Source: a bacterium | Lineage (GTDB): Bacteria; Patescibacteriota; Minisyncoccia; UBA6257; GWB1-50-10 | Assembly (NCBI GenBank): GCA_021801565.1 | Contig: JAJYXV010000003.1 | Coordinates: forward strand, 68,894-132,893 | Direction of reading: 5' to 3' | Length of the DNA stretch: 64,000 nt | Shown: one piece after another, positions 2,565-63,357 of the stretch | How the letters are laid out: every line of letters begins with the position of its first letter | Position numbering within the stretch: position 1 is the stretch's first letter | Program-made: the position numbers and the translations under genes | The notes under the pieces: model-generated | The model's database searches: none | What the model saw: the letters and a program-made list of their open reading frames with translations, nothing else | Told to the model about the DNA's origin: nothing

Positions 2565-2888
2565 ATGGAAGCTCAAATTATAGAAAAAATAAAGCCTGGG
2601 GCAAAAATACGAGTGTGGGAACGCATAAAAGAAGGCGACAAAGAGCGCCAGAGTGCGTTTGAGGGAATCGTACTTGCAAGGAAACATGGCGTGGAATCGG
2701 GTGCAACATTTACTGTGCGTGCAATATTGCAAGAAGTTGGGGTTGAAAAAGTGTACCCGATTAATTCTCCAAATATTGCAAAAATTGAAATTATTTCTGC
2801 ACCAAAAAAAGTGAGACGATCGAAATTGTATTTCTTGAGGGATCTTTCAAGTAAGAAAGTAAGAGAAAAATTGAGACTTACCACATAA
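2565..2888 (+). CDS. rplS: 50S ribosomal protein L19
   Basis: MEAQIIEKIKPGAKIRVWERIKEG...GIVLARKHG matches L19. The ORF track starts at 2517; the internal Met at 2565 is the likely start. Confidence 0.85.
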   Translation: MEAQIIEKIKPGAKIRVWERIKEGDKERQSAFEGIVLARKHGVESGATFTVRAILQEVGVEKVYPINSPNIAKIEIISAPKKVRRSKLYFLRDLSSKKVREKLRLTT

Positions 2889-2967
2889 TACAAAATCTCC
2901 GTTCGAACACCGGGGATTTTATTTGAAAAAAGTAGTAGGGGTGATTATAATGAAAAACACTCCTTGA

Positions 2968-2980
2968 ATATGCGCGGGTG
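2968..2980 (+). repeat. 13-nt direct repeat ATATGCGCGGGTG copying the 5' end of tRNA-Leu (second copy at 3282-3294)
   Basis: Exact 13-mer repeated 314 nt apart, bracketing the GIY-YIG ORF. A D-arm-like segment gcgaagtggcagat follows the first copy. Confidence 0.5.
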
Positions 2981-3037
2981 CCCGCCCATGGCGGATAAGG
3001 CGAAGTGGCAGATTTAACCGCCTTTGGCGGTCGCACT

Positions 3038-3280
3038 ATGGAAGTAATAGTGTATTCAATAAAAAGTTTGAAAGATGGATATCGGTATGTCGGAATTACG
3101 AAAAATCTAGAAGATAGATTGAAGAGGCATAATGGGGGTCATAATATTAGTACCGCGTCCCACGCCCCATTTCAGTTGATTTATGAAGAAGTGTTTTCAT
3201 CTTATAACGATGCAAGAAAAAAAGAGAAATTTTTAAAAAGTGGAGTTGGACGAAAGTTTTTGGATACTTTAATATCTTAA
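3038..3280 (+). CDS. GIY-YIG nuclease domain protein (~80 aa)
   Basis: VYSIKSLKDGYRYVGITKNLEDRLKRHN is the GIY-(x10)-YVG...R...H signature. The ORF track starts at a GTG at 3005; the ATG at 3038 is more likely. Confidence 0.75.
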   Translation: MEVIVYSIKSLKDGYRYVGITKNLEDRLKRHNGGHNISTASHAPFQLIYEEVFSSYNDARKKEKFLKSGVGRKFLDTLIS

Positions 3281-3285
3281 GATAT

Positions 3286-3372
3286 GCGCGGGTGGCGAAA
3301 CTGGCAGACGCACTACCTTGAGGTGGTAGCGCCCGCAAGGGCTTGGAGGTTCAAATCCTCTCCCGCGCACCA
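3286..3372 (+). tRNA. tRNA-Leu (anticodon GAG), CCA encoded
   Basis: Acceptor GCGCGGG/CCCGCGC, anticodon loop ttGAGgt, long variable arm gcccgcaagggc, T-arm ggagg-ttcaaat-cctct, 3' ACCA. Confidence 0.85.
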
Positions 3373-3376
3373 GAAT

Positions 3377-3415
3377 ACAAAAGGAAAGAATTTTAATTCT
3401 TTCCTTTTGTATTTA
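3377..3415 (+). terminator. Rho-independent terminator after tRNA-Leu
   Basis: Perfect hairpin acaaaaggaaagaatt-ttaa-ttctttccttttgt followed by attta. Confidence 0.6.
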
Positions 3416-3437
3416 TAGATATGTGAAGGATTTGAAT

Positions 3438-3560
3438 GAGAAGGGGGTCGGGGGAACGGAAGTTTCCCCGTGTAAGAAAATACTAAAAACCGAGAGGTTG
3501 TTAGGGAGCGAAGCGACGTTCAAATCCTCCGCCAGAGGCGGACAAGTCTCCCGCGCACCG
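3438..3560 (+). ncRNA. Unclassified structured element A, paralogous to element B at 9283-9438, ending in a tRNA-Leu 3'-end-like sequence
   Basis: Shares AAGGGGGTCGGGG and AAACCG.GGG..T..TA.GGAG.GAAGCGA.G with 9283-9438. Its 3' part gttcaaatcctc...tctcccgcgcacc resembles the T-arm and acceptor 3' strand of the tRNA-Leu just upstream. Confidence 0.3.
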
Positions 3561-3625
3561 GATTATTTGAAGTGATTTGAATAGATGGGAAATTAGAAAG
3601 TTGATGAGTTTGATATAATGAACTC

Positions 3626-4768
3626 ATGAAGAAGAGTCAATTTATTGTTTTTGGTATTGTGCTTATAGTACTCTGTGTTGGAGGATATTTTGTCTTTTCG
3701 TACTTTGAAGAATGGCTCCCGTCTTCACCCACTTTTGATACATATAATCTCCCACCAAATTCCTCTACAACAGGAGATAATATTTCAGATAGTATGGTGA
3801 AAGATCCTTATGCAGGATGGAAAATATACACAAATGAAAAATATGGATACTCGATACATTACCCTGGAAATTGGTATGTCGACACGCGCTTTTCGAATAG
3901 AGATTTCAGCACGCGCGGAAGTGGTGATGTGATGGGCGGGGATACGCTGTTCGCAAATTACGAGAATGGCTATGATTACGACATTACGAATATGCCACGG
4001 GATTTCGATTCAATACAGCTTCTCATTTATAAAACCGATCCAAAGATTGTTTTTCTTGATGATTACGTGAAGACGATCAATTTTGTTGGGTTGTATACAA
4101 AAGAAGATATAATGATCCATGGCGTTCCGGGGCTCAAGCTTACCTTCAGTAAAGACAGAGAGCAGCCATCCGCGGATGCAGTAGTATTTTTAAAGATCAA
4201 TGATAGGGTGTTCAACTTCAGTATACGAGATTCCGCGATAAAAGAACTCATAACCAACTCCTTCCGTCCAAGCGAAAAAAATATGCTTCTTTTAAAACTC
4301 CTTAATCAGCATTTTCCTCCATTTGGAATAGTGGATACACCATTCGCATTTATAAACGGGGGATATAAATATTCATACTGTGGAGGAAAGATGCTTGGTG
4401 AAGAGGACTGCAAGAACAATCCAATATATCAAAATACAACAAGCATATATCTTGACGAAGGTGTGCTCTCGTTTGAAAAAACACAAAATGGGATATATTA
4501 TGTCGCAACGATCGTCACGTTCAATGCCGGAGGAACAGGTCAATATAAATATCTTGTCCTTTTGAACGGAACCCCCGATTCCGATCTTTCGTATGTCGCA
4601 AGTGTAGATCTTGGTGATAGGGTGCAAATACACAGTATCTCATTTTCCGAGGGGAAAATTGTTCTCGATATGAATATACATGGACCAAATGATGGACTAT
4701 GTTGTCCAAGTGTTCGTACAACGAAAATATTCGAATTACAGGGAGGAAATTTAATGGAAGTCCATTAA
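3626..4768 (+). CDS. Hypothetical secreted or membrane-anchored protein (380 aa)
   Basis: N-terminal TM/signal anchor FIVFGIVLIVLCVGGYFVF. No recognisable catalytic motif. A TGnTATAAT element lies 6 nt upstream of the ATG. Confidence 0.6.
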   Translation: MKKSQFIVFGIVLIVLCVGGYFVFSYFEEWLPSSPTFDTYNLPPNSSTTGDNISDSMVKDPYAGWKIYTNEKYGYSIHYPGNWYVDTRFSNRDFSTRGSGDVMGGDTLFANYENGYDYDITNMPRDFDSIQLLIYKTDPKIVFLDDYVKTINFVGLYTKEDIMIHGVPGLKLTFSKDREQPSADAVVFLKINDRVFNFSIRDSAIKELITNSFRPSEKNMLLLKLLNQHFPPFGIVDTPFAFINGGYKYSYCGGKMLGEEDCKNNPIYQNTTSIYLDEGVLSFEKTQNGIYYVATIVTFNAGGTGQYKYLVLLNGTPDSDLSYVASVDLGDRVQIHSISFSEGKIVLDMNIHGPNDGLCCPSVRTTKIFELQGGNLMEVH

Positions 4769-5521: not shown

Positions 5522-5854
5522 GTGGAGAAGAATATAAAATTTCTTTGTGAACACTGTGAAGTGATTGCAGAGCATAAACTTTTTTTTCCAATGCGTGGGA
5601 GGGGAGTAATTCAATACGTTTCTGTGTGCAGTGTATGCATGTCGGTTTCTTTGCATGGTGTAAAAGCAGAAGAAAGTGAAATAAGGGCAATTGAGCACAT
5701 ACATTTTCTTTGTGGTGTATGCAACATGCGGGTACGCGGAAAAATTATTTCAGAAAAGGAAGAGAGTACTGAATATAAGGGCAAAAGAGAAAAATATATC
5801 GAAATTATAGTTCAATGCTTAAGGTGTCACAAAACGAAGAAATTAGCCCTCTAA
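5522..5854 (+). CDS. Zinc-ribbon protein with a duplicated CxxC...CxxC module (110 aa)
   Basis: Four CxxC pairs arranged as two similar halves (FLCEHCEV... and FLCGVCNM...). Confidence 0.45.
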   Translation: MEKNIKFLCEHCEVIAEHKLFFPMRGRGVIQYVSVCSVCMSVSLHGVKAEESEIRAIEHIHFLCGVCNMRVRGKIISEKEESTEYKGKREKYIEIIVQCLRCHKTKKLAL

Positions 5855-5978
5855 AATTAAACAAAATGAGTCTTGAAAATTAAGCTCATTTTTTTATTAT
5901 TATATATCGAAATATTTCAGTAAAAATGAGCCTTTTTTCCTCTTTTGAAGCTTCCATTTTTATGTAAAATTTGATAGA

Positions 5979-7946
5979 ATGAAAAGGTGCCAAGAAGGCA
6001 TTATTTTTATGGCAAAGGAAACGAAAAAAGATGAAAAAAAGATCCAATCTTCCTCATATAGTGCAAAAGATATATATGTTCTTGAGGGACTTGATCCAGT
6101 GAGAAAAAGGCCAGGAATGTATATCGGTTCAACCGGTGTCGACGGACTGCATCATTTAATTTGGGAAATTGTGGACAATTCACTCGACGAGGCAATTGGA
6201 GGATATGCAAAAAAAATTACACTTGAGCTTTTGAAAGATGGGGTTGTATCTGTCACCGATGACGGGCGAGGTATCCCGGTTGATATACATCCGCAAACAA
6301 AAAAATCAGCACTTGAAACGGCATTGTGCACACTTCATGCGGGAGGAAAATTCGGAGGAGATTCATACAAAATTTCTTCAGGACTTCACGGAGTCGGTGT
6401 TTCTGTGGTAAATGCACTTTCCACATGGATGAAAGCAGAAATTCATAAAGACGGAGGAATTTATGTACAAGAATATAAAAAAGGGATTCCGCAATATAGT
6501 GTAAAAAAAATCGGGAAATCGGAGAGAACAGGAACAAAAATAACGTTTCAAGCGGATCCGACGATTTTTCAAAAAATTGAATTTGATACAAAAAAAATTA
6601 CCGACCATCTCCGTCAGCAGGCATATCTGACAAAAGGAATTCATATCGACATTATTGATACGAGAAAAGGACAACCGATATTTTATGGCTTCTATTTTGA
6701 CGGTGGATTAAAATCATTTCTTCATTATTTGGTAAGTGAGACGGAAGAGATTATTCAAGATGAAGCGTTTTATGTGCATAAAGAAATGGAAAAAATCGAT
6801 ATTGAAGCGTCATTTCTTTACACAAGCGATGTAGAAAGCGAAGAGATGAGTTTTGCAAACAATATTTATACCACAGATGGGGGGATGCATCTTACTGGAT
6901 TTCGTTCCGCACTTACTCGATCGTTAAATGATTATGCAAGACAAAACGGCTTTCTCAAAGATGCTGATGAAAATCTTACTGGTGACGATGTTCGTGAGGG
7001 ACTTATTGCACTTGTTTCTGTAAAACTACGCGAACCTCAGTTTGAAGGACAAACAAAAGCGCGACTGGGAAATCCAGAGGCACGTACTGCAGTTGAAACA
7101 GCGGTAAACGAAGCACTTAAAGAATTTCTCGAAAAAAGATCATCTGACGCACGACGTATTATCGAAAAAAATCTTCTTGCCGCGAAAGCGCGAAAAGCGG
7201 CAAAAGCCGCGAAAGATACAGTACTTCGCAAAGGTGCGCTGGAGGGACTCACGCTCCCAGGAAAATTAGCTGATTGTTCATCGCGGAAGGCGGAGGAATC
7301 AGAACTTTTTATTGTTGAAGGAGATTCAGCGGGCGGTTCGTGTAAACAAGGAAGGGACAGAAAAACACAGGCAATTTTGCCTTTGCGAGGAAAAATTTTG
7401 AATGTTGAGAAATCACGCGTGGATAAAATGCTTTTAAACAAAGAAGTGCGTTCGCTTGTTGTTGCGTTAGGGACTGCAATTTCTGATAAATTTGATATTT
7501 CAAAACTTCGGTATCATAAAGTTATTTTAATGGCTGATGCCGATGTTGATGGTGCTCATATTACAACACTTCTTCTCACGCTATTCTATCGTTACTTCAG
7601 ACAGATTATTGAAGGCGGGTATCTTTATATTGCGCAACCACCACTTTTCCGTGTACAAAAAGGAAAGGATATTCGATATGCATATACCGAAGAGGAAAGA
7701 GATAAAACACTGAAATCGTTCGGGGGAGAAGGATCGGTACAGCGATATAAGGGTTTAGGAGAAATGAATCCAGATCAATTATGGGAGACAACAATGAATC
7801 CAGAAAACAGAATGTTGAAACGCGTATCTATTAATGATGTGATACAAGCAGATAAACTTTTTGATATTCTCATGGGAGAAGCAGTTGAACCACGTAAGAA
7901 ATTTATACAGGCCCATGCGAGTACTGTGCAAAATCTTGACATTTAA
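5979..7946 (+). CDS. gyrB: DNA gyrase subunit B (type IIA topoisomerase B subunit)
   Basis: GHKL ATPase motif [21 protein letters not shown] region, C-terminal [21 protein letters not shown]. The start may be the Met at 6009. Confidence 0.85.
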
Positions 7947-28954: not shown

Positions 28955-28992
28955 CCCTCATTCTAATGTTCTCAAGAACATTAGAATGAGGG
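28955..28992. promoter_or_regulatory. 38-nt palindrome (18-bp arms, core AATGTTCTCAAGAACATT) overlapping the start region of the ArsR-like gene
   Basis: ccctcattctaatgttct-ca-agaacattagaatgaggg. Related copies at 29274-29299, 51964-52003 and 30513-30534. Confidence 0.45.
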
Positions 28993-29306
28993 GGGAGGAA
29001 AGTGATATAATAAAGAATATGAAAGGGGATGGGGGAAGGTCAAAGTTTTATACACTAGAAAAGATAATAAAAGGAGCAAGCAATCATCGAAGGGTTGAAA
29101 TTTTATACCTCTTAAAAGAAAAGCCAAATCTTTCGGTTTTCGATATATCGGAAAAATTAAAGTGTAATTTCAAGACTATTTCCGAACATACGCGTCGGTT
29201 GGTGCAATCTGGGTTGATTTCGAAATATTCTGATGGAAGCTCGGTTCGTCACGAAATTACTTTATTGGGGGAAAATGTTCTCAAGTTCTTGAGAACATTG
29301 GAATAA
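28986..29306 (+). CDS. ArsR/SmtB-family winged-helix transcriptional regulator
   Basis: HRRVEILYLLKEKPNLSVFDISEKL...TISEHTRRLVQSGLI is a helix-turn-helix of the ArsR type. The likely start is the Met at 29019, after a GGGGGAGGAAAG RBS. Confidence 0.6.
   Translation: MRGEESDIIKNMKGDGGRSKFYTLEKIIKGASNHRRVEILYLLKEKPNLSVFDISEKLKCNFKTISEHTRRLVQSGLISKYSDGSSVRHEITLLGENVLKFLRTLE
29274..29299. promoter_or_regulatory. Palindrome AATGTTCTCAAG-TT-CTTGAGAACATT at the 3' end of the ArsR-like gene, upstream of the methyltransferase gene
   Basis: 12-bp arms. Shares the half-site with 28955-28992 and 51964-52003. Confidence 0.4.
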
Positions 29307-49836: not shown

Positions 49837-49837
49837 G

Positions 49838-49899
49838 CTGCGGGACTAGGAGTCGGACCTAGATACCGGGATTCAAAGTCCCGTGTCCTACCATTAGAC
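49838..49899 (-). pseudogene. Partial tRNA-Gln copy (62 nt, D-arm to 3' end, no 5' acceptor strand), abutted by the palindrome CCTGCCTGCGCAGGCAGG
   Basis: Identical to nt 49951-50012 of the intact tRNA-Gln, but the 5' side reads gcaggcag instead of TGCGGGATC and cannot pair with the 3' acceptor strand. Confidence 0.5.
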
Positions 49900-49950
49900 C
49901 TGCCTGCGCAGGCAGGCGATCCTCAAATGAATATAAACTCTCGATCACAG

Positions 49951-50021
49951 CTGCGGGACTAGGAGTCGGACCTAGATACCGGGATTCAAAGTCCCGTGTC
50001 CTACCATTAGACGATCCCGCA
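49951..50021 (-). tRNA. tRNA-Gln (anticodon TTG), CCA not encoded, atypical T-loop TCCGACT
   Basis: Minus-strand reading: TGCGGGA-TC-GTCT-AATGGTA-GGAC-A-CGGGA-CTTTGAA-TCCCG-GTAT-CTAGG-TCCGACT-CCTAG-TCCCGCA-G. All stems pair. Position 55 is C rather than U. Confidence 0.7.
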
Positions 50022-51964: not shown

Positions 51965-52003
51965 ATAACATTCCAATGTTCTTGAGAACATTGGAATGTT
52001 ATT
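51964..52003. promoter_or_regulatory. 40-nt palindrome (core AATGTTCTTGAGAACATT, the reverse complement of the 28964 core) at the start of the 51976 gene
   Basis: aataacattccaatgttc-ttga-gaacattggaatgttatt, with 18-bp arms. Confidence 0.4.
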
Positions 52004-53830: not shown

Positions 53831-54847
53831 ATGAAATTATCAATTGGCATTGTAGGTCTTCCTAATGTGGGGAAATCAACGCTTTTTAAGGCTCTGACCG
53901 CACAGGAAGTGCATATCGCAAATTATCCGTTTGCGACGATTGATCCAAATGTAGGAGTAGTGCCAGTTCCTGATGAGCGGGTTGATGCACTTGCAAAATT
54001 AAGTAATTCAAAAAAGAAAGTTCCTGCAGTTGTCGAGTTTTACGATATTGCGGGACTTGTGAAAGGAGCAAATCAGGGTGAGGGATTGGGAAATCAATTT
54101 CTTTCGCACATTCGTGAATGCAAAGCGGTGGTGCAAGTGGTTCGCTGTTTTTCTTCGGGAGAAATTATTCATGTCGAAGGTAACACAAATCCAGAAAGAG
54201 ACATTGATATCATCAACACCGAGTTATTATTAAAAGATCTTGATACGATTGAGAAACGATATCACAAAGCAGAGTCGGAAGCGCGAAGCGGAAAAAAAGA
54301 AATGGTGGTGGTGCGGGATGCACTTAAAAAAATAAAAGATGAAATTGAAAAAGGGGTTCCTCTTTTCACGCTCCCAAATCATTCTGAAATTCTTGAAAGT
54401 ATTAAAATGATTGGAGATTTAGGATTATTAACTGCAAAGGCACAAATTTTTCTTTTAAACGGAAATGAAAGCGATGTAAGCGACGCACTCAAAGAAAAAA
54501 TAAAAAAGATGAACGCGGAGTATGTAATTGCCGATTTGAGTTCGGGAAATGCCATTCCGGAACTTATTAAGAGTGCATATAAAATTTTGGATCTTATGAG
54601 TTTTCTTACTACCGGAGAAGATGAAACACGTGCATGGACAATTGAGAGAGGATCAAAAGCACCACAAGCGGCAGGTACCATTCACACTGATTTTGAGCAG
54701 AAATTTATACGGGCTGAAGTTATTTCGTACGAAAAACTTGTGCAGGCGGGCGGATGGGTGCAGGCAAAACAAAAGGGCTGGTTACGCCTTGAGGGAAAAG
54801 ATTATATTGTACAGGACGGAGATGTAATGGTAATAAGACATGGATAA
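53831..54847 (+). CDS. ychF: Ribosome-binding ATPase YchF (Obg-like)
   Basis: GIVGLPNVGKSTLFKALT G1 motif, NYPFATIDPNVG, and a C-terminal TGS domain. Confidence 0.9.
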   Translation: MKLSIGIVGLPNVGKSTLFKALTAQEVHIANYPFATIDPNVGVVPVPDERVDALAKLSNSKKKVPAVVEFYDIAGLVKGANQGEGLGNQFLSHIRECKAVVQVVRCFSSGEIIHVEGNTNPERDIDIINTELLLKDLDTIEKRYHKAESEARSGKKEMVVVRDALKKIKDEIEKGVPLFTLPNHSEILESIKMIGDLGLLTAKAQIFLLNGNESDVSDALKEKIKKMNAEYVIADLSSGNAIPELIKSAYKILDLMSFLTTGEDETRAWTIERGSKAPQAAGTIHTDFEQKFIRAEVISYEKLVQAGGWVQAKQKGWLRLEGKDYIVQDGDVMVIRHG

Positions 54848-58791: not shown

Positions 58792-59664
58792 ATGAATGAA
58801 ATCTTTCCAAAAGTTAATCCCACACCAGGGGATGAAAAGAAAATGGAACAGGTTCTTTATAAAGCAAAAGAGATTTTGGCAGATGCTGTGGCGGATGATA
58901 GAGAAAAAAGGGTTAATATAGAAAAAGGGAACAAAAATTTTCCCAAACTTGATTCCACACCAGAAGATGAGGAAAAGATGGAAAGTATTCTCAATGAAGC
59001 GAGGGAAATTTTGGCGTGTGCTGAAGAAGATGACGAAAAAAGAAAAAGAGAACAAGCACTCGAAGAGTTTAATTTTATAGATGGTAAATATGCCGAGGAT
59101 TTTTGGGAAGATAATAAACCATCCAAAGAGGAATTACAGGAAATAGGGAATACTATAAAGAGAATCGAGAAAGAATTAAAAGATGAAAGCAGCGATTTTT
59201 ATACAAATACGGAAAAAGGTTCTGTCAGTGAATTATTTTTTAAAACCCTAGCCGAAGAGATACCGAGTTTGGATATTTCGATAGACGAGAATGCTGTCGA
59301 TATGAATGGTGTCTTACTTAGTAATTACGTTGCCGTGAGAACGGTCCCTTATAAAACGGATAGAGAATTTATTTGGGATTTATATCATAATGAGACTATA
59401 CATACGTTAGTTAGTCCAGAGTATTCTTCTCAAGAAGATATAAAAGAATTAGAAAAATCAGGAGTAATACCAAAAGATTTTCATCATCGCGCCTTGGTGA
59501 AACAGTATGAGTTTTATGCAAAAAAATGGCCTGATAGTGCAGATTTTTGGAAAGGAGAAATAGCAGAGCTTGGAGATGTGATTCCATTTTCCAATGAAGA
59601 AATACAGGAAATAATGAGGAAAATTATATTAGACGAATTTAAAAAGAGACTCAACGGGGATTAA
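58792..59664 (+). CDS. Hypothetical acidic protein with a tandem ~40-aa repeat
   Basis: FPKVNPTPGDEKKMEQVLYKAKEILADAVADD and FPKLDSTPEDEEKMESILNEAREILACAEEDD repeats. Confidence 0.55.
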   Translation: MNEIFPKVNPTPGDEKKMEQVLYKAKEILADAVADDREKRVNIEKGNKNFPKLDSTPEDEEKMESILNEAREILACAEEDDEKRKREQALEEFNFIDGKYAEDFWEDNKPSKEELQEIGNTIKRIEKELKDESSDFYTNTEKGSVSELFFKTLAEEIPSLDISIDENAVDMNGVLLSNYVAVRTVPYKTDREFIWDLYHNETIHTLVSPEYSSQEDIKELEKSGVIPKDFHHRALVKQYEFYAKKWPDSADFWKGEIAELGDVIPFSNEEIQEIMRKIILDEFKKRLNGD

Positions 59665-59802: not shown

Positions 59803-60507
59803 ATGAATTTTAATTTTATGAAAAAAATACTATTTGCAAATTGGAAGATGAATCCAATGACGGAAAATGAGGCGGTGAAGCTTGCTCGAGCGAGTGATGT
59901 TAAAGATGCGGTACTTATACCGCCGTTTCCTTTTTTGAAAGCGGTAAAAAATGTTTTGAAGAATGCGTCACTTGGTGCACAAGATGTTTTCTATGAAGAA
60001 GAGGGAGCGTATACGGGTGAAGTGTCTCCTCAGATGTTAAAAAAACTTGAGGTGAAATATGTAGTTGTCGGGCATTCGGAACGCCGGCGCCTTGGAGAAA
60101 GTGATGAAATGATTGCAAAAAAGATGAAAGCGGGGACTGATGTGGGGCTAAAAGTTATTTTATGCGTTGGGGAACCTCTTTCTGTTTATAAAAAAGGAAA
60201 GAAGGTAACAGAAGAGTTTATAAAAAAACAGTTCAGATTTATTAAAGATAAAAAGAATCTTATTATTGCGTATGAACCGATTTGGGCAGTCGGCACGGGG
60301 AAAAATGCTGATCCGGAAGATGCAGCACGCGTTGCACGATTTATAAAAAGCATTGTTTCAGTGCCTGTATTGTATGGTGGTTCAACAAATTCAAAAAATG
60401 CGGAAGATTTTTTGAAGAAAAAAGAAATTGCAGGACTGTTGATTGGCGGAGCGAGTATTGATGCGAAGGAATTTCAAAAGATGATCAAAATCGCAAAGCG
60501 ATTTTAG
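59803..60507 (+). CDS. tpiA: Triosephosphate isomerase
   Basis: ANWKMN, VVGHSERR and YEPIWAVGTG motifs. Confidence 0.9.
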   Translation: MNFNFMKKILFANWKMNPMTENEAVKLARASDVKDAVLIPPFPFLKAVKNVLKNASLGAQDVFYEEEGAYTGEVSPQMLKKLEVKYVVVGHSERRRLGESDEMIAKKMKAGTDVGLKVILCVGEPLSVYKKGKKVTEEFIKKQFRFIKDKKNLIIAYEPIWAVGTGKNADPEDAARVARFIKSIVSVPVLYGGSTNSKNAEDFLKKKEIAGLLIGGASIDAKEFQKMIKIAKRF

Positions 60508-60613
60508 TTTATAAAGTCCGTAAAGTTTAGAGTTTTTAAAGTATGAAAGAAGAACGAATATGCCACAACTGTCCGCCCAAGGCGGATCAGCCTCGGGCTG
60601 ATAAATATTAACT

Positions 60614-62425
60614 ATGGATAGCCAAACTAAAGTTTGTCAAAACTGTCATCAAAGATTCTGGATTGAATCCGAAGATTTTGATTTCTACAAAAAAATAGAT
60701 GTGCCCATGCCGACATGGTGTCCGGAATGTCGGAACTTAAGACGGATGATGTGGCGGGAAGAACGAACTCTCTATAAGAATACATGCGGACTATGTGGGA
60801 AGCAGATCATCACGATTCATGCTCCTGGGACTCCCTTTACTGTGTACTGTCGAGAATGTTGGTGGTCGGATAAGTGGGACCCGATGGATTACGGTCGCGA
60901 GTATGATTTCTCGCAGCCGTTTTTTATACAATACCGGAAACTTCTCGAGGTGGTTCCTCGACCAGCATTCACCGGCACTAATCTCGTTGAAAGCGACTAT
61001 TCGCACGCGTGCCAAAATCTTAAAAATTGTTACTATGTGTTTTGGAGTTATTTTTCGGAAAATTCCCAATTTGATTATGGACTTTTATTTTCAAAGGATA
61101 CCTATGACTCCTATGTCGTTGATAATTCAGATCATGTTTATTCTTCACTCCATTCGAATCGCCTCTATCGGACGCAGTTCGGATATTTTTCTGATGAATG
61201 TCTTGATTCCGCGCTTCTTTTTAATTGCGTTGGGTGTTCGAATTGTTTTGGATGTGTGAATCTGAGAAAGCAAAAATACTGTATATTCAATCAAAAATTT
61301 TCCAAGGACGAATATGCAAAAGAAATTGCAACGTGGGATTTGGGAAGCTATAAAAAACTTGAGGAAGCAAGACAAAAATTCAGAGAATTTTATTTTTCTC
61401 TTCCGCGCCGATATGCTCATATTTTAAACAGTCAGAATGTTACTGGAGACATCATTCGAGATACAAAAAATTGCAAAACGTGCTTTTCCGCGCTTGATAA
61501 TGTAGAAGATTGTAAATATATCTATTTTGGCGGATTGAATCTCAAGGACAGCTATGATGTAAGTGGAGGAGGAATAAATTCCCAGCTTCTTTATGAAATT
61601 TATGCCATGACAGGAAACGTTGAGCGATGTTTCTTTTCGGCGGGAGGAAATGATTCTATTGACACGATGTATTGTGATTGGGCAAGAAATTCATCTGATT
61701 CTTTTGGGTGTGTGTCGGTCCAGAATAAAAAATATTGTATATTGAACCGGCAATATACAAAAGAAGAATATGAAGCGCTCCTTAAGACGATACGAAAGCA
61801 CATGGATGACATGCCATATGTGGACAAAAAAGGAAGGGTGTATAAATTTGGAGAATTCTTTCCGCCGGAATTTTCCGCGTACGCATATAATGAATCTGCC
61901 GCATTTCCTTGGTATTCAAGAACCAAAGAGGAAATTCTCGAGGAAGGGTGGCAATGGCGGGACGAAGCAGAACGGAATTATAAAGTCACATTGAGACAGG
62001 AAAACATTCCAGATCACATAAAAGATGTTTCTGATTCAATTTTGAATGAAATTATCGAGTGCAGACATTCTACAAGTTTATGGCAGACAGAACATAAAGC
62101 ATGTCTTGATGGATGCACGAAAGCATTCCGGCTTACTAGGGAAGAATTGGCGTTTCATCGAGAAATGAATATCGCTTTACCCCGCCTTTGCCCCAATTGT
62201 CGGACGGCTGAGATACTCTCATGGAGGAATGGATTTCATCTCTATAAAAGGAAATGTCAATGTAACCAATTAAAGACTAAAGACCAAAAACTGATAACAT
62301 ATGCAAATACTGCAGAACATTTTCATGGAAATGGGCCATGTCCAAATGAGTTTGAAACGACTTTTTCTCCAGAGTCAAAAGAAATTGTGTACTGTGATGA
62401 ATGTTATAAACCTGAATTTTTATGA
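60614..62425 (+). CDS. Large Cys-rich hypothetical protein (603 aa): terminal zinc-ribbon clusters flanking an internally repeated core
   Basis: About 15 CxxC/CxC pairs (CQNC, CPEC, CGLC, CREC ... CPNC, CDEC) and two related ~90-aa repeats, each ending in a C-rich motif and K(D/E)EY. Confidence 0.55.
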   Translation: MDSQTKVCQNCHQRFWIESEDFDFYKKIDVPMPTWCPECRNLRRMMWREERTLYKNTCGLCGKQIITIHAPGTPFTVYCRECWWSDKWDPMDYGREYDFSQPFFIQYRKLLEVVPRPAFTGTNLVESDYSHACQNLKNCYYVFWSYFSENSQFDYGLLFSKDTYDSYVVDNSDHVYSSLHSNRLYRTQFGYFSDECLDSALLFNCVGCSNCFGCVNLRKQKYCIFNQKFSKDEYAKEIATWDLGSYKKLEEARQKFREFYFSLPRRYAHILNSQNVTGDIIRDTKNCKTCFSALDNVEDCKYIYFGGLNLKDSYDVSGGGINSQLLYEIYAMTGNVERCFFSAGGNDSIDTMYCDWARNSSDSFGCVSVQNKKYCILNRQYTKEEYEALLKTIRKHMDDMPYVDKKGRVYKFGEFFPPEFSAYAYNESAAFPWYSRTKEEILEEGWQWRDEAERNYKVTLRQENIPDHIKDVSDSILNEIIECRHSTSLWQTEHKACLDGCTKAFRLTREELAFHREMNIALPRLCPNCRTAEILSWRNGFHLYKRKCQCNQLKTKDQKLITYANTAEHFHGNGPCPNEFETTFSPESKEIVYCDECYKPEFL

Positions 62426-62589: not shown

Positions 62590-63357
62590 ATGACGCGCGG
62601 GACAAAAAAAATTATATATGGAGTTTTTTATCTTTTTATCTTTGGGTTAATTTTTTATTGGCTATTTGGCGGTTTATTTATAAAGGCGCCGACATGTTCT
62701 GATGGTATTCAAAACCAAAATGAAACGGGAATTGATTGTGGTGGAGTATGTACAAAGTGTGAAATTACAGAACTTTCTCCATTGAGGCAGGTGGGGGATG
62801 TCCGTGTATTTTCTCTTGAAGGAGGAAAAGTAATTTTACTTGCGGAAATATTAAATCCAAATCAATTCTTTTCTTCGGATAGATTTTCGTATACGTTTAC
62901 CGCGTATAATGCGCGGAATCAAGAAATTGAAAGAATACCAGGGAATGACGCAATTTTTGCACTTGAGAAAAAGTTTATATTTGAACCGAGAATTTCTTCT
63001 TCTGCAAAAGATATAAGTAAAGTCGAGCTCACATTGTCCGATACATCATGGAAAAAAGCGTATGAAATGCTTCGTCCCGACGTGGTTATATCATCAGCGG
63101 TTGAAACAAAAAACACGGATCAGGGAATACGCGTATCCGGAAGTGTAAAGAATCAAGGTTCTGTGCTCGCTTCCGAAGTGAGAATTACTGCAATTTTATA
63201 TGACAAATATGACACGGAAATTTTTCCAGGACAGACAATATTATCAGATCTCAGTGGATTAGAAGAGAAACCGTTTGTCGTTTCATTTCCGGAAAACAAA
63301 CAGATTACGGACGAGGTTGATTTTTCCCGTACGAAGGTATTTTTAAGTACACAGTAA
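62590..63357 (+). CDS. Hypothetical secreted or membrane-anchored protein (255 aa)
   Basis: N-terminal TM IIYGVFYLFIFGLIFYWLFGGLF. No catalytic motif. Confidence 0.5.
   Translation: MTRGTKKIIYGVFYLFIFGLIFYWLFGGLFIKAPTCSDGIQNQNETGIDCGGVCTKCEITELSPLRQVGDVRVFSLEGGKVILLAEILNPNQFFSSDRFSYTFTAYNARNQEIERIPGNDAIFALEKKFIFEPRISSSAKDISKVELTLSDTSWKKAYEMLRPDVVISSAVETKNTDQGIRVSGSVKNQGSVLASEVRITAILYDKYDTEIFPGQTILSDLSGLEEKPFVVSFPENKQITDEVDFSRTKVFLSTQ

Follow-up and report, generated by a model that had tools for sequence, protein, structure and literature searches.

Tandemly encoded putative multi-zinc proteins of Parcubacteria and the palindromic element in front of one of their genes

The locus described here raises two questions: what kind of protein is encoded by the large cysteine-rich ORF just downstream of tpiA, and whether the 106-nt spacer in front of that ORF is a regulatory leader, as proposed in an initial annotation of the window (the whole stretch of DNA that was analysed, 64,000 nucleotides). 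The 603-aa ORF was recovered exactly as annotated, with an ATG start, and the gene upstream is indeed tpiA. The genes and the parts of the encoded protein are the following.

59803..60507, + strand: tpiA (triose-phosphate isomerase), upstream neighbour (PF00121 on the identical gene in loci L204 and L205)
60614..62425, + strand: gene of the 603-aa putative multi-zinc protein (ORF with ATG start; 71 kDa, pI 6.0)
60620..60877, + strand: putative N-terminal zinc module, aa 3-88 (weak Pfam matches, matches in homologs, Cys conservation)
60974..61369, + strand: central repeat A, aa 121-252 (HHalign against repeat B, conservation profile)
61421..61813, + strand: central repeat B, aa 270-400 (BLASTP, HHalign, conservation profile)
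61814..62044, + strand: acidic alpha/beta domain, aa 401-477 (conserved, no detectable relative)
62045..62422, + strand: putative C-terminal zinc module, aa 478-603 (duplicate of the N-terminal module by HHalign, conservation)
62590..63357, + strand: 255-aa membrane-anchored neighbour (no Pfam match; conserved, also following the ortholog at L080 and at L204)

The gene product is a cytoplasmic 71-kDa protein built by way of two internal duplications. A signal peptide, transmembrane or hydrophobic segment was looked for in the protein and none was seen; tblastn found no second copy of the gene within the 64-kb window. The protein contains 33 Cys residues (5.5% of residues), clustered at both termini as had been claimed: C8/11, C36/39, C58/61 and C79/82 at the N-terminal end, and C497/501, C526/529, C548/550 and C594/597 at the C-terminal end. 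The number of motifs is smaller than the 'about 15' pairs first reported, since we counted 11 non-overlapping CxxC, CxC or CxxxC pairs (12 when an overlapping CSNC is included). The N-terminal module is composed of a treble-clef finger resembling PF13451 (C8, C11, C36, C39), then a basic helix, and finally another ribbon, which resembles PF23477 and contains C58, C61, C79 and C82. In the C-terminal module the conserved putative ligands are C483, C497/C501, C526, C529, C548, C550, H569, H571, C576, C594 and C597, and a variable loop sits between the CxC and the HxH. Comparison of the two modules (aa 3-88 against aa 478-603) by HHalign gave a probability of 99.6% (E=4e-23), a duplication that had been missed.

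Within the family C8, C11, C36, C39, C483, C548, C576, C594 and C597 are 98-99% conserved. The conservation of these Cys sets, together with their resemblance to treble-clef families, makes the protein a putative zinc binder through its conserved Cys/His sets. Both terminal fingers are trailed by a conserved Arg-rich helix (CRxxRRxxWRNER and CRxxxRxxxRN), and the C-terminus of the family is conserved as well (...YCExCYxxEF[ILV]). The protein as a whole is acidic, and the finger modules carry a net charge of about +2 to +3. Cys, Asn, Asp and aromatic residues predominate among the conserved positions of the family, where no classical catalytic or nucleotide-binding motif was seen.

The second duplication lies in the centre of the protein. 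An internal repeat of ~90 aa had been noted at first; the repeat is real but longer (~120 aa). BLASTP aligned aa 132-240 with aa 293-392 (E=3e-9), and HHalign of the family profiles of aa 121-252 and aa 270-400 gave a probability of 99.9% (E=2.5e-36). Repeat A consists of short Cys/Ser-containing units closing in CFGCVNLRKQKYCIFNQKFSKDEY, followed by a helix; repeat B closes in FGCVSVQNKKYCILNRQYTKEEY, again followed by a helix. The Cys run of repeat A (C205-x2-C208-x2-C211-x2-C214) is matched by Ser in repeat B of the window protein, so that these central Cys may serve the structure instead of acting as ligands; across the family a conservation of at least 90% is reached by C211 and C366 alone. 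In some paralogs the central Cys could bind another metal. The acidic domain that follows has the family consensus GRxYxYGEFFPxExSPFAYNET...

At E<=1e-3 the protein has over 5,900 homologs, and the 120 top-ranking ones show identities of 50% or more along most or all of its length. The family comprises 3,511 clusters at 50% identity (1,356 of these at E<=1e-30), and its named genome matches are nearly all Patescibacteria/Parcubacteria, which are ultra-small bacteria. Orthologs are 60-67% identical across lineages, and the family is under strong purifying selection. A viral origin was rejected, as there was just one marginal match, at a contig end. The very large family to which the window protein belongs is uncharacterised; literature searches on zinc ribbons, cysteine-rich paralogs and tandem genes in Parcubacteria, Patescibacteria or Paceibacteria found nothing on it. 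One source names a family member 'Zn ribbon nucleic-acid-binding protein'.

The initial annotation had placed the protein in no family, and profile searches agree: over its whole length no Pfam, NCBIfam or PDB family was matched, and the description of a large, conserved zinc-finger-type protein of uncharacterised kind stands. Below the cut-offs, the terminal modules do resemble known fingers. PF13451 (zf_Tbcl) scored 10.3 bits on the window protein (E=0.74; gathering cut-off 24 bits) and was found at E<=0.01 in 27 of 73 homologs (best 5e-7). PF13451 is described as a 'probable treble clef domain', and typical PF13451 proteins are small. What these proteins have in common with the window protein is the pattern CxxC-x3-F-x-I-x3-D/E-x2-FY-x2-K-x3-P-x2-CxxCR, which occurs at aa 8-44 and a second time at aa 497-534; the difference is that here two copies are set within a 603-aa architecture. 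A literature search found no paper mentioning PF13451. On aa 51-84, PF23477 (zf_Tbcl_2) and NCBIfam TIGR04272 scored 14.1 and 13.7 bits (cut-offs 27 and 36 bits), with matches at E<=0.01 in 17/73 and 9/73 homologs, respectively. Both models (CxxC-x17-CxxC) align to the second ribbon (C58..C82, LYxxxCxxCGK...VYCxxC); unlike in PF23477, the ribbon ligands are missing in some paralogs, for example in the paralog at L080.

An AF2 model of the protein, built on a 73-sequence alignment, reached a pLDDT of 86.2 and a pTM of 0.87; this alignment was used instead of one of only 31 close homologs, which gave a pLDDT of 65. Foldseek found no fold in the PDB for this model at E<=0.001 (best E=3.3), and against BFVD the zinc ribbons alone matched, superimposing on 'putative zinc-ribbon domain' models with an rmsd of 0.7 Å over ~40 residues. 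For aa 120-480 no characterised family was found in Pfam, NCBIfam, PADLOC or PHROGs, nor any significant match in sequence and profile searches of the PDB. The only PDB sequence match of the family profile was the Tenebrio antifreeze beta-helix (PDB 1ezg), covering the units of repeat A. With this Cys-ladder beta-solenoid repeat A shares short periodic Cys/Ser units; unlike in 1ezg, the stretch shows few regular strands in the AF2 model, where its pLDDT is 62-73. Composition and periodicity account for this match, which at E=3.2 is not significant and was rejected.

Analysis of orthologs and neighbours revealed what the initial annotation had missed, a tandem multi-paralog family with ATPase neighbours. 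In 81 of 82 loci (~13 kb each) 201 family ORFs were found, 1-8 per locus, and in the listed arrays of at least three all copies share a strand. Grouped at 50% identity, the ORFs fall into 65 subfamilies, and a subfamily is repeated within a locus for only 4 of 187 members. The arrays are same-strand tandem sets of anciently diverged paralogs. At least 12 copies are present in a single MAG, JBFLWN01 (loci L069, L074 and L080). The arrays sit among core genes, and the short spacers at L080 (14-24 nt) indicate that they are probably co-transcribed with them. In the window, tpiA is part of the housekeeping block scpA-scpB-S11 peptidase-mraY-(290 aa ORF)-tpiA, which is also present at L080. Next to some arrays lie CutA1-like genes (7/82 loci) or ArsR-type genes (4/82 loci); as a functional clue these metal-homeostasis neighbours were set aside as too infrequent.

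The commonest neighbour is an ATPase resembling type IV coupling proteins (T4CP), directly adjacent 21 times in 16 of the 82 loci; the next commonest neighbour family was seen 7 times in 4 loci. Overall the association covers 16-23 of 82 loci, which are phylogenetically non-independent. Orthologs of the window gene at L007 and L075 have such an ATPase directly downstream; within the 64-kb window there is no T4CP-like gene. The neighbour ATPases share the TrwB_AAD_bind, T4SS-DNA_transf and TraG-D_C domains with VirD4/TrwB coupling proteins, a likeness that concerns a candidate partner of the family and not a homolog. They start ~30-40 residues before Walker A, with no hydrophobic stretch in the first 50, and so appear to be without an N-terminal membrane anchor. 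Apart from being apparently unanchored, they differ from VirD4/TrwB in carrying an extra zinc ribbon and in not lying beside virB4, and no relaxase or channel genes were found in the ATPase loci examined. The long form carries PF23477 well above threshold (46-56 bits, cut-off 27), and an HMM of the family's N-terminal module aligns to this same ribbon. Orphan T4CPs are abundant in Patescibacteria (PMC12102498): among 5,713 VirD4-like T4CPs in 2,918 genomes, 148 were near virB4, and exaptation of these proteins 'cannot be ruled out' (PMC12102498).

From architecture and neighbourhood we tentatively propose, as a reading that may well prove wrong, that the family proteins are non-enzymatic multi-zinc adaptors or cargo working with orphan coupling-type ATPases of Parcubacteria. 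Such a protein would be rigid and pseudo-symmetric, its terminal finger pairs would grip a macromolecule (DNA, RNA or the ATPase itself), and the variable faces of the central modules would give each paralog its own specificity.

The strongest alternative is that these are stand-alone housekeeping factors binding nucleic acids, each paralog recognising its own RNA or DNA targets through the central surfaces, with the ATPase merely syntenic. The treble-clef and zinc-ribbon fingers with their Arg-rich helices, the location of the probably co-transcribed arrays among core genes, the conservation of orthologs across lineages and the nucleic-acid-binding label that one member bears all agree with it. 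However, a charge of only about +2 to +3 on the fingers of an otherwise acidic protein is less than would be expected of a protein that binds nucleic acids, profiles detected no known domain for binding RNA or DNA, and both the enrichment of the ATPase and the ribbon common to the two proteins would be left unexplained; we consider this alternative unlikely.

Less probable still is a repertoire exported to a host cell through type IV machinery, with the VirD4-like ATPases as coupling proteins. Tightly zinc-folded proteins are poor T4SS substrates, which speaks against export of a protein of this kind, as do the strong purifying selection and the 60-67% identity of orthologs, unlike typical fast-evolving effectors. 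The many paralogs, the conserved C-terminus, the lack of a Sec signal and the T4CP-like genes alongside would suit export, and the T4SS of Patescibacteria is thought to serve functions beyond conjugation (PMC12102498), but the neighbour ATPases apparently lack the membrane anchor of true coupling proteins and such ATPases are almost never near virB4 (PMC12102498).

A role in metal or redox metabolism, as a zinc or cysteine store or as an Fe-S protein through the CxxCxxCxxC of repeat A, is very unlikely: the Cys content, the C205-C214 run and the CutA1-like and ArsR-type genes beside some arrays suggested it, but about 5 sites per 603 aa would be inefficient for storage, repeat B has Ser in place of the run, good conservation is confined to C211 and C366, ferredoxin or SPASM profiles do not match, and the association with metal genes is weak. 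That the protein belongs to a known class of enzymes or enzyme partners (RiPP machinery, for instance, or the partner of a radical-SAM maturase) has nothing but Cys richness in its favour and is extremely improbable, given that no radical-SAM, SPASM or ferredoxin Fe-S profile and no known scaffold matched, that the CxxCxxCxxC run is not kept in repeat B or in the family, that no radical-SAM or peptide-precursor genes were among the neighbours in the examined loci, and that no defence system was matched.

The second question concerns the spacer between tpiA and the gene, in which the following features lie.

60508..60613, + strand: 106-nt spacer, the proposed 'leader' (unchanged only in two other assemblies, both from this organism)
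60543..60611, + strand: 22-codon ORF, MKEERICHNCPPKADQPRADKY and stop (first 10 codons, stub; rest, palindromic element)
60560..60601, + strand: 13-codon uORF, MPQLSAQGGSASG and stop (palindromic element in the 'SAxGGSAxG' frame, as in in-gene copies)
60570..60603, + strand: palindromic double-hairpin copy, TGT-CCGCC-caa-GGCGG-AT-CAGCC-tcg-GGCTG-ATA (one copy of a dispersed element, whose consensus and flanks come from 127 metagenome copies)

The two adjacent hairpins reported at first are present, CCGCC-caa-GGCGG at 60573-60585 and (at)CAGCC-tcg-GGCTG(at) at 60586-60602. The 13-codon uORF also exists; nothing supports its being functional, and its frame is that of the element. The first 10 codons of the longer ORF, the stub, are a relic of the family's N-terminus up to the first zinc knuckle: with a PSSM score of 17.3 bits the stub ranked second of the 83,215 10-mers of the window, after the real gene (28.1 bits) and before the next best (5.1). 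It resembles an ortholog-type N-terminus as much as that of the paralog, and may derive either from the lost paralog or from the 5' end of the gene itself; a DNA alignment to L080 was ambiguous on this point. In the slot of the spacer the closest relatives, L080 and L081, have an intact tandem paralog. The layout of stub, hairpins and gene recurs at 12 other sites (11 with the gene start visible, one cut by the locus end), and at L044 both N-terminal and C-terminal relics are kept around the hairpins. Every junction of stub and hairpin falls at the CQN(C) codons, a regularity for which simple decay gives no reason. The spacer probably consists of the remains of an upstream tandem paralog, its first 10 codons, joined to one copy of a palindromic element, and is probably no dedicated regulator.

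A functional leader controlling the Cys-rich protein, either by attenuation in response to Cys supply or by translational coupling, is improbable by comparison. The hairpins end 10 nt ahead of the start codon, the stub ORF includes a pair of Cys codons and has its stop 2 nt short of the ATG, the stems vary between loci yet stay complementary, and the layout recurs in several genomes, all of which would favour a leader. Folding of the spacer was somewhat better than that of shuffled sequences (z=-2.0; 6 of 200 shuffles fold as well). However, the Rfam scan of the spacer gave no match better than E=2.5, and the terminator scan found none, the hairpins being followed by ATAAATATTAACT without a T run. 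The closest ortholog, at L080, has a spacer of 24 nt and other orthologs have 4-150 nt, with the hairpins absent in all, so that their conservation does not extend to orthologs; the arrangement is lacking in ~93% of family genes, the same element occurs in unrelated genes and intergenic DNA, and the stub ORF stops early in several cases (L013, L054 4732). Of 11 stub ORFs, 8 end at most 12 nt from the true start codon, compared with 7 of 22 among the other frames, a difference that is weak and partly automatic, because a GC-rich insert precedes AT-rich sequence; the stub ORF may nevertheless have a role in translational coupling.

The hairpins themselves belong to a dispersed repeat. CCGCCnnnGGCGG occurs four times in the window, at 2982, 3018, 3529 and 60573, where none is expected (100 shuffles); the further copy that had been placed at 3019-3031 is real and lies at 3018-3030. 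Rfam found no intron or other family apart from tRNA in window positions 2850-3700. The element was detected in at least 120 metagenome stretches, and the 127 metagenome copies among the matches listed gave the 34-nt consensus TTTCCGCC-RRA-GGCGGATCCGCC-TYY-GGCGGAAA; 39 of 125 aligned copies among these matches have the CAGCC/GGCTG variant. Open frames of at least 150 codons contain 72 of the 127 copies listed, and 57 of these 72 read as SAxGGSAxGG. Copies are also present at L018, L039 and L050. In the L050 paralogs the element forms a 14-aa in-frame insertion relative to the nearest homologs, in the variable loop of the C-terminal module. A direct repeat, GGAAATCCCAA, flanks the L050 insertions, an indirect hint of mobility. 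The arm TGTCCCGAYT, considered as a pure terminus of the element, matches exactly the C-P-D codons that family genes have at the second knuckle, so that the palindrome may also have formed in situ.

From its distribution we infer a selfish palindromic insertion element, putatively mobile and comparable to the palindromic elements of Rickettsia, which are reportedly selfish repeats inserting in frame into genes. As in Rickettsia, the copies are dispersed, palindromic, found both between and inside genes, and read as a tolerated peptide (SAxGGSAxGG); they differ in length (~34 nt against 100-150 nt), are unrelated in sequence and occur in another phylum. GC clusters of yeast mitochondria are related analogues. 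Like REP/BIME sequences, the element consists of short hairpins rich in GC that often come as inverted pairs; REPs are by definition extragenic and associated with RAYT transposases, whereas more than half of the listed copies of the present element lie in open frames. Coding palindromes in mitochondrial genes of Nematomorpha (PMC6649704) form a further analogue. No work on palindromic elements of Patescibacteria came up in a literature search.

Much of bacterial diversity belongs to the Patescibacteria, whose conserved genes mostly lack a known function. In the sampled loci the size of the family, the conservation of its orthologs and the MAG with 12 copies indicate that it behaves as an important part of Parcubacterial cell biology, and it offers a concrete candidate partner for the orphan VirD4-like ATPases that were left unplaced by a 2025 census. 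A few strains related to Parcubacteria are now in co-culture. The in-gene palindromic element can mislead gene callers and searches for regulatory RNAs, and it misled the reading of the spacer as a leader here. It is possible, though as a whole doubtful, that all of this belongs to one undescribed machinery of Parcubacteria, in which arrays of multi-zinc proteins work with soluble ATPases and are remodelled by elements of ~34 nt. If so, ~2-3% of these tiny genomes would be spent on a cytoplasmic multi-zinc machinery, with up to a dozen diverged proteins of a new central fold per array set, and the partner ATPases would be soluble, bear a zinc ribbon and descend from type IV coupling ATPases. 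Previously undescribed palindromes would then spread in CPR genomes, enter genes in frame and mark the sites of deleted paralogs, and thousands of orphan VirD4 homologs would gain partners and a new function, for example in handling imported DNA or host-directed cargo.

The ORF at 60614-62425 is real, as the initial annotation had claimed, and encodes a protein of 603 aa (71 kDa, pI 6.0, 33 Cys), in which no signal peptide and no hydrophobic segment were found. Its CxxC-type motifs are indeed concentrated at both ends; they number 11-12 and not about 15. The gene lies downstream of tpiA as annotated, at a distance of 106 nt, in a housekeeping block with the order scpA, scpB, S11 peptidase, mraY, a 290-aa ORF, tpiA, the window gene, a 255-aa membrane protein, ftsW and yceG. 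In seven public contigs of the same organism both the protein and the 106-nt spacer are identical. The acidic 290-aa ORF between mraY and tpiA (58792-59664) has no Pfam match and contains an internal repeat (..PTPGDEKKMEQVLYKAKEILA.. / ..STPEDEEKMESILNEAREILA..); it is missing from L080, the locus of the closest relative, which is otherwise syntenic.

No family in Pfam, NCBIfam or PDB covers the window protein. The sole signals were sub-threshold matches to zinc fingers, PF13451 for aa 5-44 and PF23477/TIGR04272 for aa 51-84; PF13451 and PF23477 are described as 'probable treble clef' fingers. The window protein scores below the cut-offs of these families and many homologs pass at E<=0.01 (among diverse homologs, PF13451 in 27 of 73 and PF23477 in 17 of 73). 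At the level of domains the ends of the protein probably belong to these families, which have not themselves been characterised; the central 360 residues match nothing known. More than 5,900 homologs were found at E<=1e-3. The best 120 of these show 50-86% identity to the query across most or all of its length, and of those with a name three bear generic labels of the zinc-ribbon type, the rest being called 'hypothetical protein'. When 1.84 billion cluster representatives were searched exhaustively, 3,511 clusters (50% identity) were found, of which 1,356 matched at E<=1e-30. In a scan of one genome per species at least 436 family loci were present, and all informatively named ones belong to the Parcubacteria group of the Patescibacteria (Lipton-, Wolfe-, Nomura-, Giovannoni-, Jorgensen-, Brenner-, Harrison-, Staskawicz- and Niyogibacteria, Minisyncoccia). 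A few automatic labels ('Saccharibacteria' binchicken bins, one 'Gammaproteobacteria' contig of 1.8 kb, one 'Burkholderiales') appear to stem from binning and are not taken as a sign that the family reaches further. The family is essentially absent from viral contigs, defence and phage profile libraries gave no match to it, and a literature search found no paper on it or on PF13451. The initial observation was borne out and its interpretation supported in part, and we regard the family as undescribed, important-looking and outside any described kind, on an inferred function and a partial comparison of folds.

Profile-profile comparison identified the N module (aa 3-88) and the C module (aa 478-603) as duplicates (probability 99.6%, E=4e-23) and matched repeat A (aa 121-252) to repeat B (aa 270-400; probability 99.9%, E=2.5e-36), the latter confirming the internal duplication noted at first annotation. 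The end modules run from a treble-clef finger (CxxC...F.I...D..FY.K..P..CxxCR) through an Arg-rich helix to a second ribbon (LYxxxCxxCGK...VYCxxC); the second N-terminal ribbon is dispensable in some paralogs. Ligands C8, C11, C36, C39, C483, C548, C576, C594 and C597 are 98-99% conserved in 188 family sequences, and conservation predicts four to five zinc sites per window protein. Short units containing Cys or Ser follow one another in each central repeat, which ends in FGCxNLRNKxYCIxNKQYSKEEY, the most conserved motif of the family, followed by a helix. Because repeat B of the window protein has Ser at two of the Cys positions, these Cys seem to play a structural part and not to be obligate ligands. 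Residues 401-477 form a conserved acidic alpha/beta domain without detectable relative, and entropy peaks at aa 140-200, 240-270 and 300-350.

In total 201 family ORFs were found in 82 loci of ~13 kb (numbered with the prefix L); the window has a single copy.

Family copies per locus
1 copy: 32 loci
2 copies: 16 loci
3 copies: 13 loci
4 copies: 10 loci
5 copies: 5 loci
6 copies: 3 loci
7 copies: 1 locus
8 copies: 1 locus

In the listed arrays of at least 3 copies, every copy is on the same strand. The 187 full-length members fall into 65 subfamilies (50%-identity cut), and only 4 of the 187 share a subfamily with another member of their own locus; judged from this divergence, array members are old paralogs and not recent duplicates. 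The closest relative, MAG JBFLWN01, carries 10 copies in 23 kb of one contig and 2 on another, summing to about 22 kb; given that Parcubacteria genomes measure roughly 1 Mb, this is about 2-3% of its DNA. L080, with the same synteny, and L081, the two nearest relatives, contain genes 86% and 78% identical to the window gene. Directly upstream, in the exact place of the window's 106-nt spacer, both have a second intact paralog (43% and 35% identity, respectively).

Inside or beside arrays in five loci a small conserved protein of ~98-121 aa (..GELNCVRPL..YPRFHAY..LHLDQKRPSY..TAHSGDY..) is encoded, for which no Pfam match was found; in L007 and L075 it lies directly upstream of the orthologs of the window gene.
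L007 5616-5981
L041 3993-4286
L058 3275-3568
L064 881-1243
L075 5686-5982

The spacer upstream of the window gene had been annotated as a candidate regulatory leader, and comprises the following features.
60508-60613, 106-nt spacer between tpiA and the family gene
60543-60611, stub ORF (MKEERICHNC-PPKADQPRADKY*) inside the spacer
60570-60603, palindromic double-hairpin element of ~34 nt
60614-62425, forward strand, family gene

The annotated hairpins are present, and shuffled sequences fold slightly less well than the spacer (z=-2.0). An Rfam scan of the leader gave no match, a terminator scan detected no terminator-like T run, and the spacers of orthologs (4-150 nt; 24 nt in L080) lack the hairpin structure. 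Missing upstream of orthologs and without Rfam match, the leader is probably not a dedicated regulator; a truly regulatory role, an explanation for the leader part only, is improbable. When a position-specific matrix from 175 family N-termini was run over the 83,215 stop-free 10-mers of the window, the first ten residues of the stub ranked second with 17.3 bits, the real start scoring 28.1 and the third best 5.1. Evidently the spacer holds the relic of a family gene. The same layout, a stub of about 10 codons ending in C-Q-N(-C), a double hairpin, a short A-rich stretch and the ATG of a full-length family gene, is seen 12 more times, spread over seven other loci (L006, L013, L025, L044, L052, L054, L058). 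A downstream family start is in view in 11 of the 12, one such gene being interrupted, and the remaining site is cut by the locus end. The hairpin stems differ among sites yet stay complementary. The stub, the palindrome and the recurring layout, taken with the intact L080 and L081 paralogs, are most simply read as the remains of a tandem paralog that once lay upstream. This does not account for the constant position of the stub junction at the CQN(C) codons. TGTCCCGAYT, the arm of the long-type hairpins, is identical to the second-knuckle codons of the family itself (C-P-D); the palindromes may thus home in on this motif or be generated from it in situ. In 8 of 11 cases the stub ORF stops no more than 12 nt from the real ATG; for the other frames the figure is 7 of 22. 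We take this as a weak hint of translational coupling and do not regard coupling as established.

In L044, two consecutive family-gene relics (5659-5900 and 5943-6010) precede an intact family gene. The first, a site additional to the 12 above, has kept the first 10 and about the last 13 codons (..KEIIYCEQCYQSEVT*), which flank a hairpin cluster; the body of the gene looks excised.

By their sequence, the leader hairpins are one copy of a dispersed palindrome, of which further copies were located.
L018 1431-1459
L039 8940-8969
L050 3440-3469 and 7107-7136
L084-L203, metagenome stretches matching the element

The pattern CCGCCnnnGGCGGATC[C/A]GCCnnnGGC[G/T]G occurs in at least 120 metagenome stretches, those listed having a median GC of 0.42. 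From the matches listed, the consensus is a perfect 34-nt palindrome, TTTCCGCC-RRA-GGCGG-AT-CCGCC-TYY-GGCGGAAA (otherwise rendered TTTCCGCC-RRA-GGCGGATCCGCC-TYY-GGCGGAAA); the CAGCC/GGCTG form of the window is a common variant (39 of 125 aligned copies among these matches). Of 127 copies among the matches listed, 72 fall within an open frame of 150 codons or more; of these 72, 57 read SAxGGSAxGG on whichever strand codes, 9 PPxADxPxA and 6 the third frame. The window stub uses the PPxADxPxA frame, and the uORF (MPQLSAQGGSASG) annotated as a distinct feature is simply the element in its commonest reading frame. Compared with their nearest homologs, two family paralogs in L050 have 14 extra residues, encoded by the element, in the variable loop of the C-terminal zinc module. 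Rickettsia palindromic elements and mitochondrial GC clusters are selfish palindromes tolerated inside genes. The element is likewise tolerated inside genes and putatively mobile; it differs from both in its much smaller length and its unrelated sequence. It resembles an RPE-like selfish element, so far undescribed, of CPR-type genomes.

Although only ~43% identical overall, the two L050 paralogs are nearly identical over ~70 nt around the insertions (3400-3480 and 7070-7150), where a direct repeat (GGAAATCCCAA / GAAAATCCCAA) occurs at each side. The repeat is a target-site duplication, or else the segment underwent gene conversion between the paralogs.

Several other features were observed in the window.
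2971-3560, two fragments matching the 5' and 3' parts of tRNA-Leu
2982, 3018 and 3529, single CCGCCnnnGGCGG hairpins, ~18-nt insertions in the two fragments
3005-3280, GIY-YIG ORF (PF01541, E=1.4e-14) between the fragments
3286-3372, intact tRNA-Leu(GAG) between the fragments
28961-28987, 29278-29304, 51971-51997 and 54382-54408, 27-nt palindromic repeat (TTCYNATGTTCTYGAGAACATTRGAAT)
about 29007-29303, small ArsR-type HTH gene bracketed by two of these repeats
49837-49899 and 49950-50012, minus strand, 63-nt perfect direct repeat formed by two adjacent tRNA-like genes

No intron family was detected in the region 2971-3560. It would appear that a unit bringing a replacement tRNA inserted into a tRNA-Leu gene, and that hairpins later colonised the two old halves. 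Both tRNA-like copies are called by Rfam (60 and 40 bits) and only tRNA-Gln(TTG), 49950-50021, by ARAGORN; one end of the second copy may be missing or changed. The ArsR-type gene has a tblastn match to neighbours of family arrays, and the 27-nt repeats are possibly the operator set of this regulator.

The genes flanking family loci are mostly unrelated housekeeping genes. The standout neighbour is a VirD4/TrwB-like ATPase (PF10412, PF02534, PF12696, DUF87), which is the direct neighbour of a family gene in 21 instances spread over 16 loci; the runner-up reaches 7 instances in 4 loci. It adjoins many different subfamilies, sometimes twice in one array, and in L007 and L075 the orthologs of the window gene lie immediately 5' of such an ATPase. 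Since these ATPases start about 30-40 residues before the Walker A motif and no obvious membrane anchor was found in their first 50 residues, they look soluble. A long subclass (13 of 29) carries a full-score PF23477 ribbon after the ATPase domains (46-56 bits, cut-off 27), among others in the following genes.
L007 7917-9839
L059 5788-7686
L043 560-2746
L075 7959-9941

An HMM built on the N module of the family aligns to precisely that ribbon and to the 'LY' before it, and the adjacent genes therefore share a domain. To our knowledge, this architecture has not been described for the 'orphan T4CPs' (type IV coupling proteins) of Patescibacteria. The long ATPases have a KIKxGE motif after the ribbon; a shorter subclass (480-512 aa) has an N-terminal PPPPELP motif and no ribbon. 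Because of the arrays and the ATPase link, the family is more remarkable than the initial annotation had recognised.

From the observed architecture, conservation, arrays, enriched neighbour and shared ribbon we tentatively propose, as a quite possible reading, that the window protein would be a pseudo-symmetric adaptor or cargo with several zinc sites and no enzymatic activity. The finger pairs at its ends would hold a macromolecule (DNA/RNA or protein), its variable central surfaces would differ among paralogs, and it would act with the soluble VirD4/TrwB-like ATPases. The acidic net charge of the protein, the absence of such an ATPase from the 64-kb window and the non-independence of the loci weigh against this. 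A stand-alone nucleic-acid-binding factor is unlikely and would leave the ribbon shared with the ATPase unaccounted for. That the divergent paralogs are an exported effector repertoire is hardly probable. A metal-storage or Fe-S role, to which the many Cys might point, is very improbable in view of the Ser replacements in repeat B, and membership of a known enzyme class can practically be dismissed, given the database searches.

A 2025 census of 2,918 Patescibacteria genomes counted 5,713 VirD4-like coupling proteins; no more than 148 lie near virB4, and its authors leave exaptation possible (PMC12102498). The family arrays are a candidate context for these orphan VirD4-like coupling proteins of Patescibacteria.
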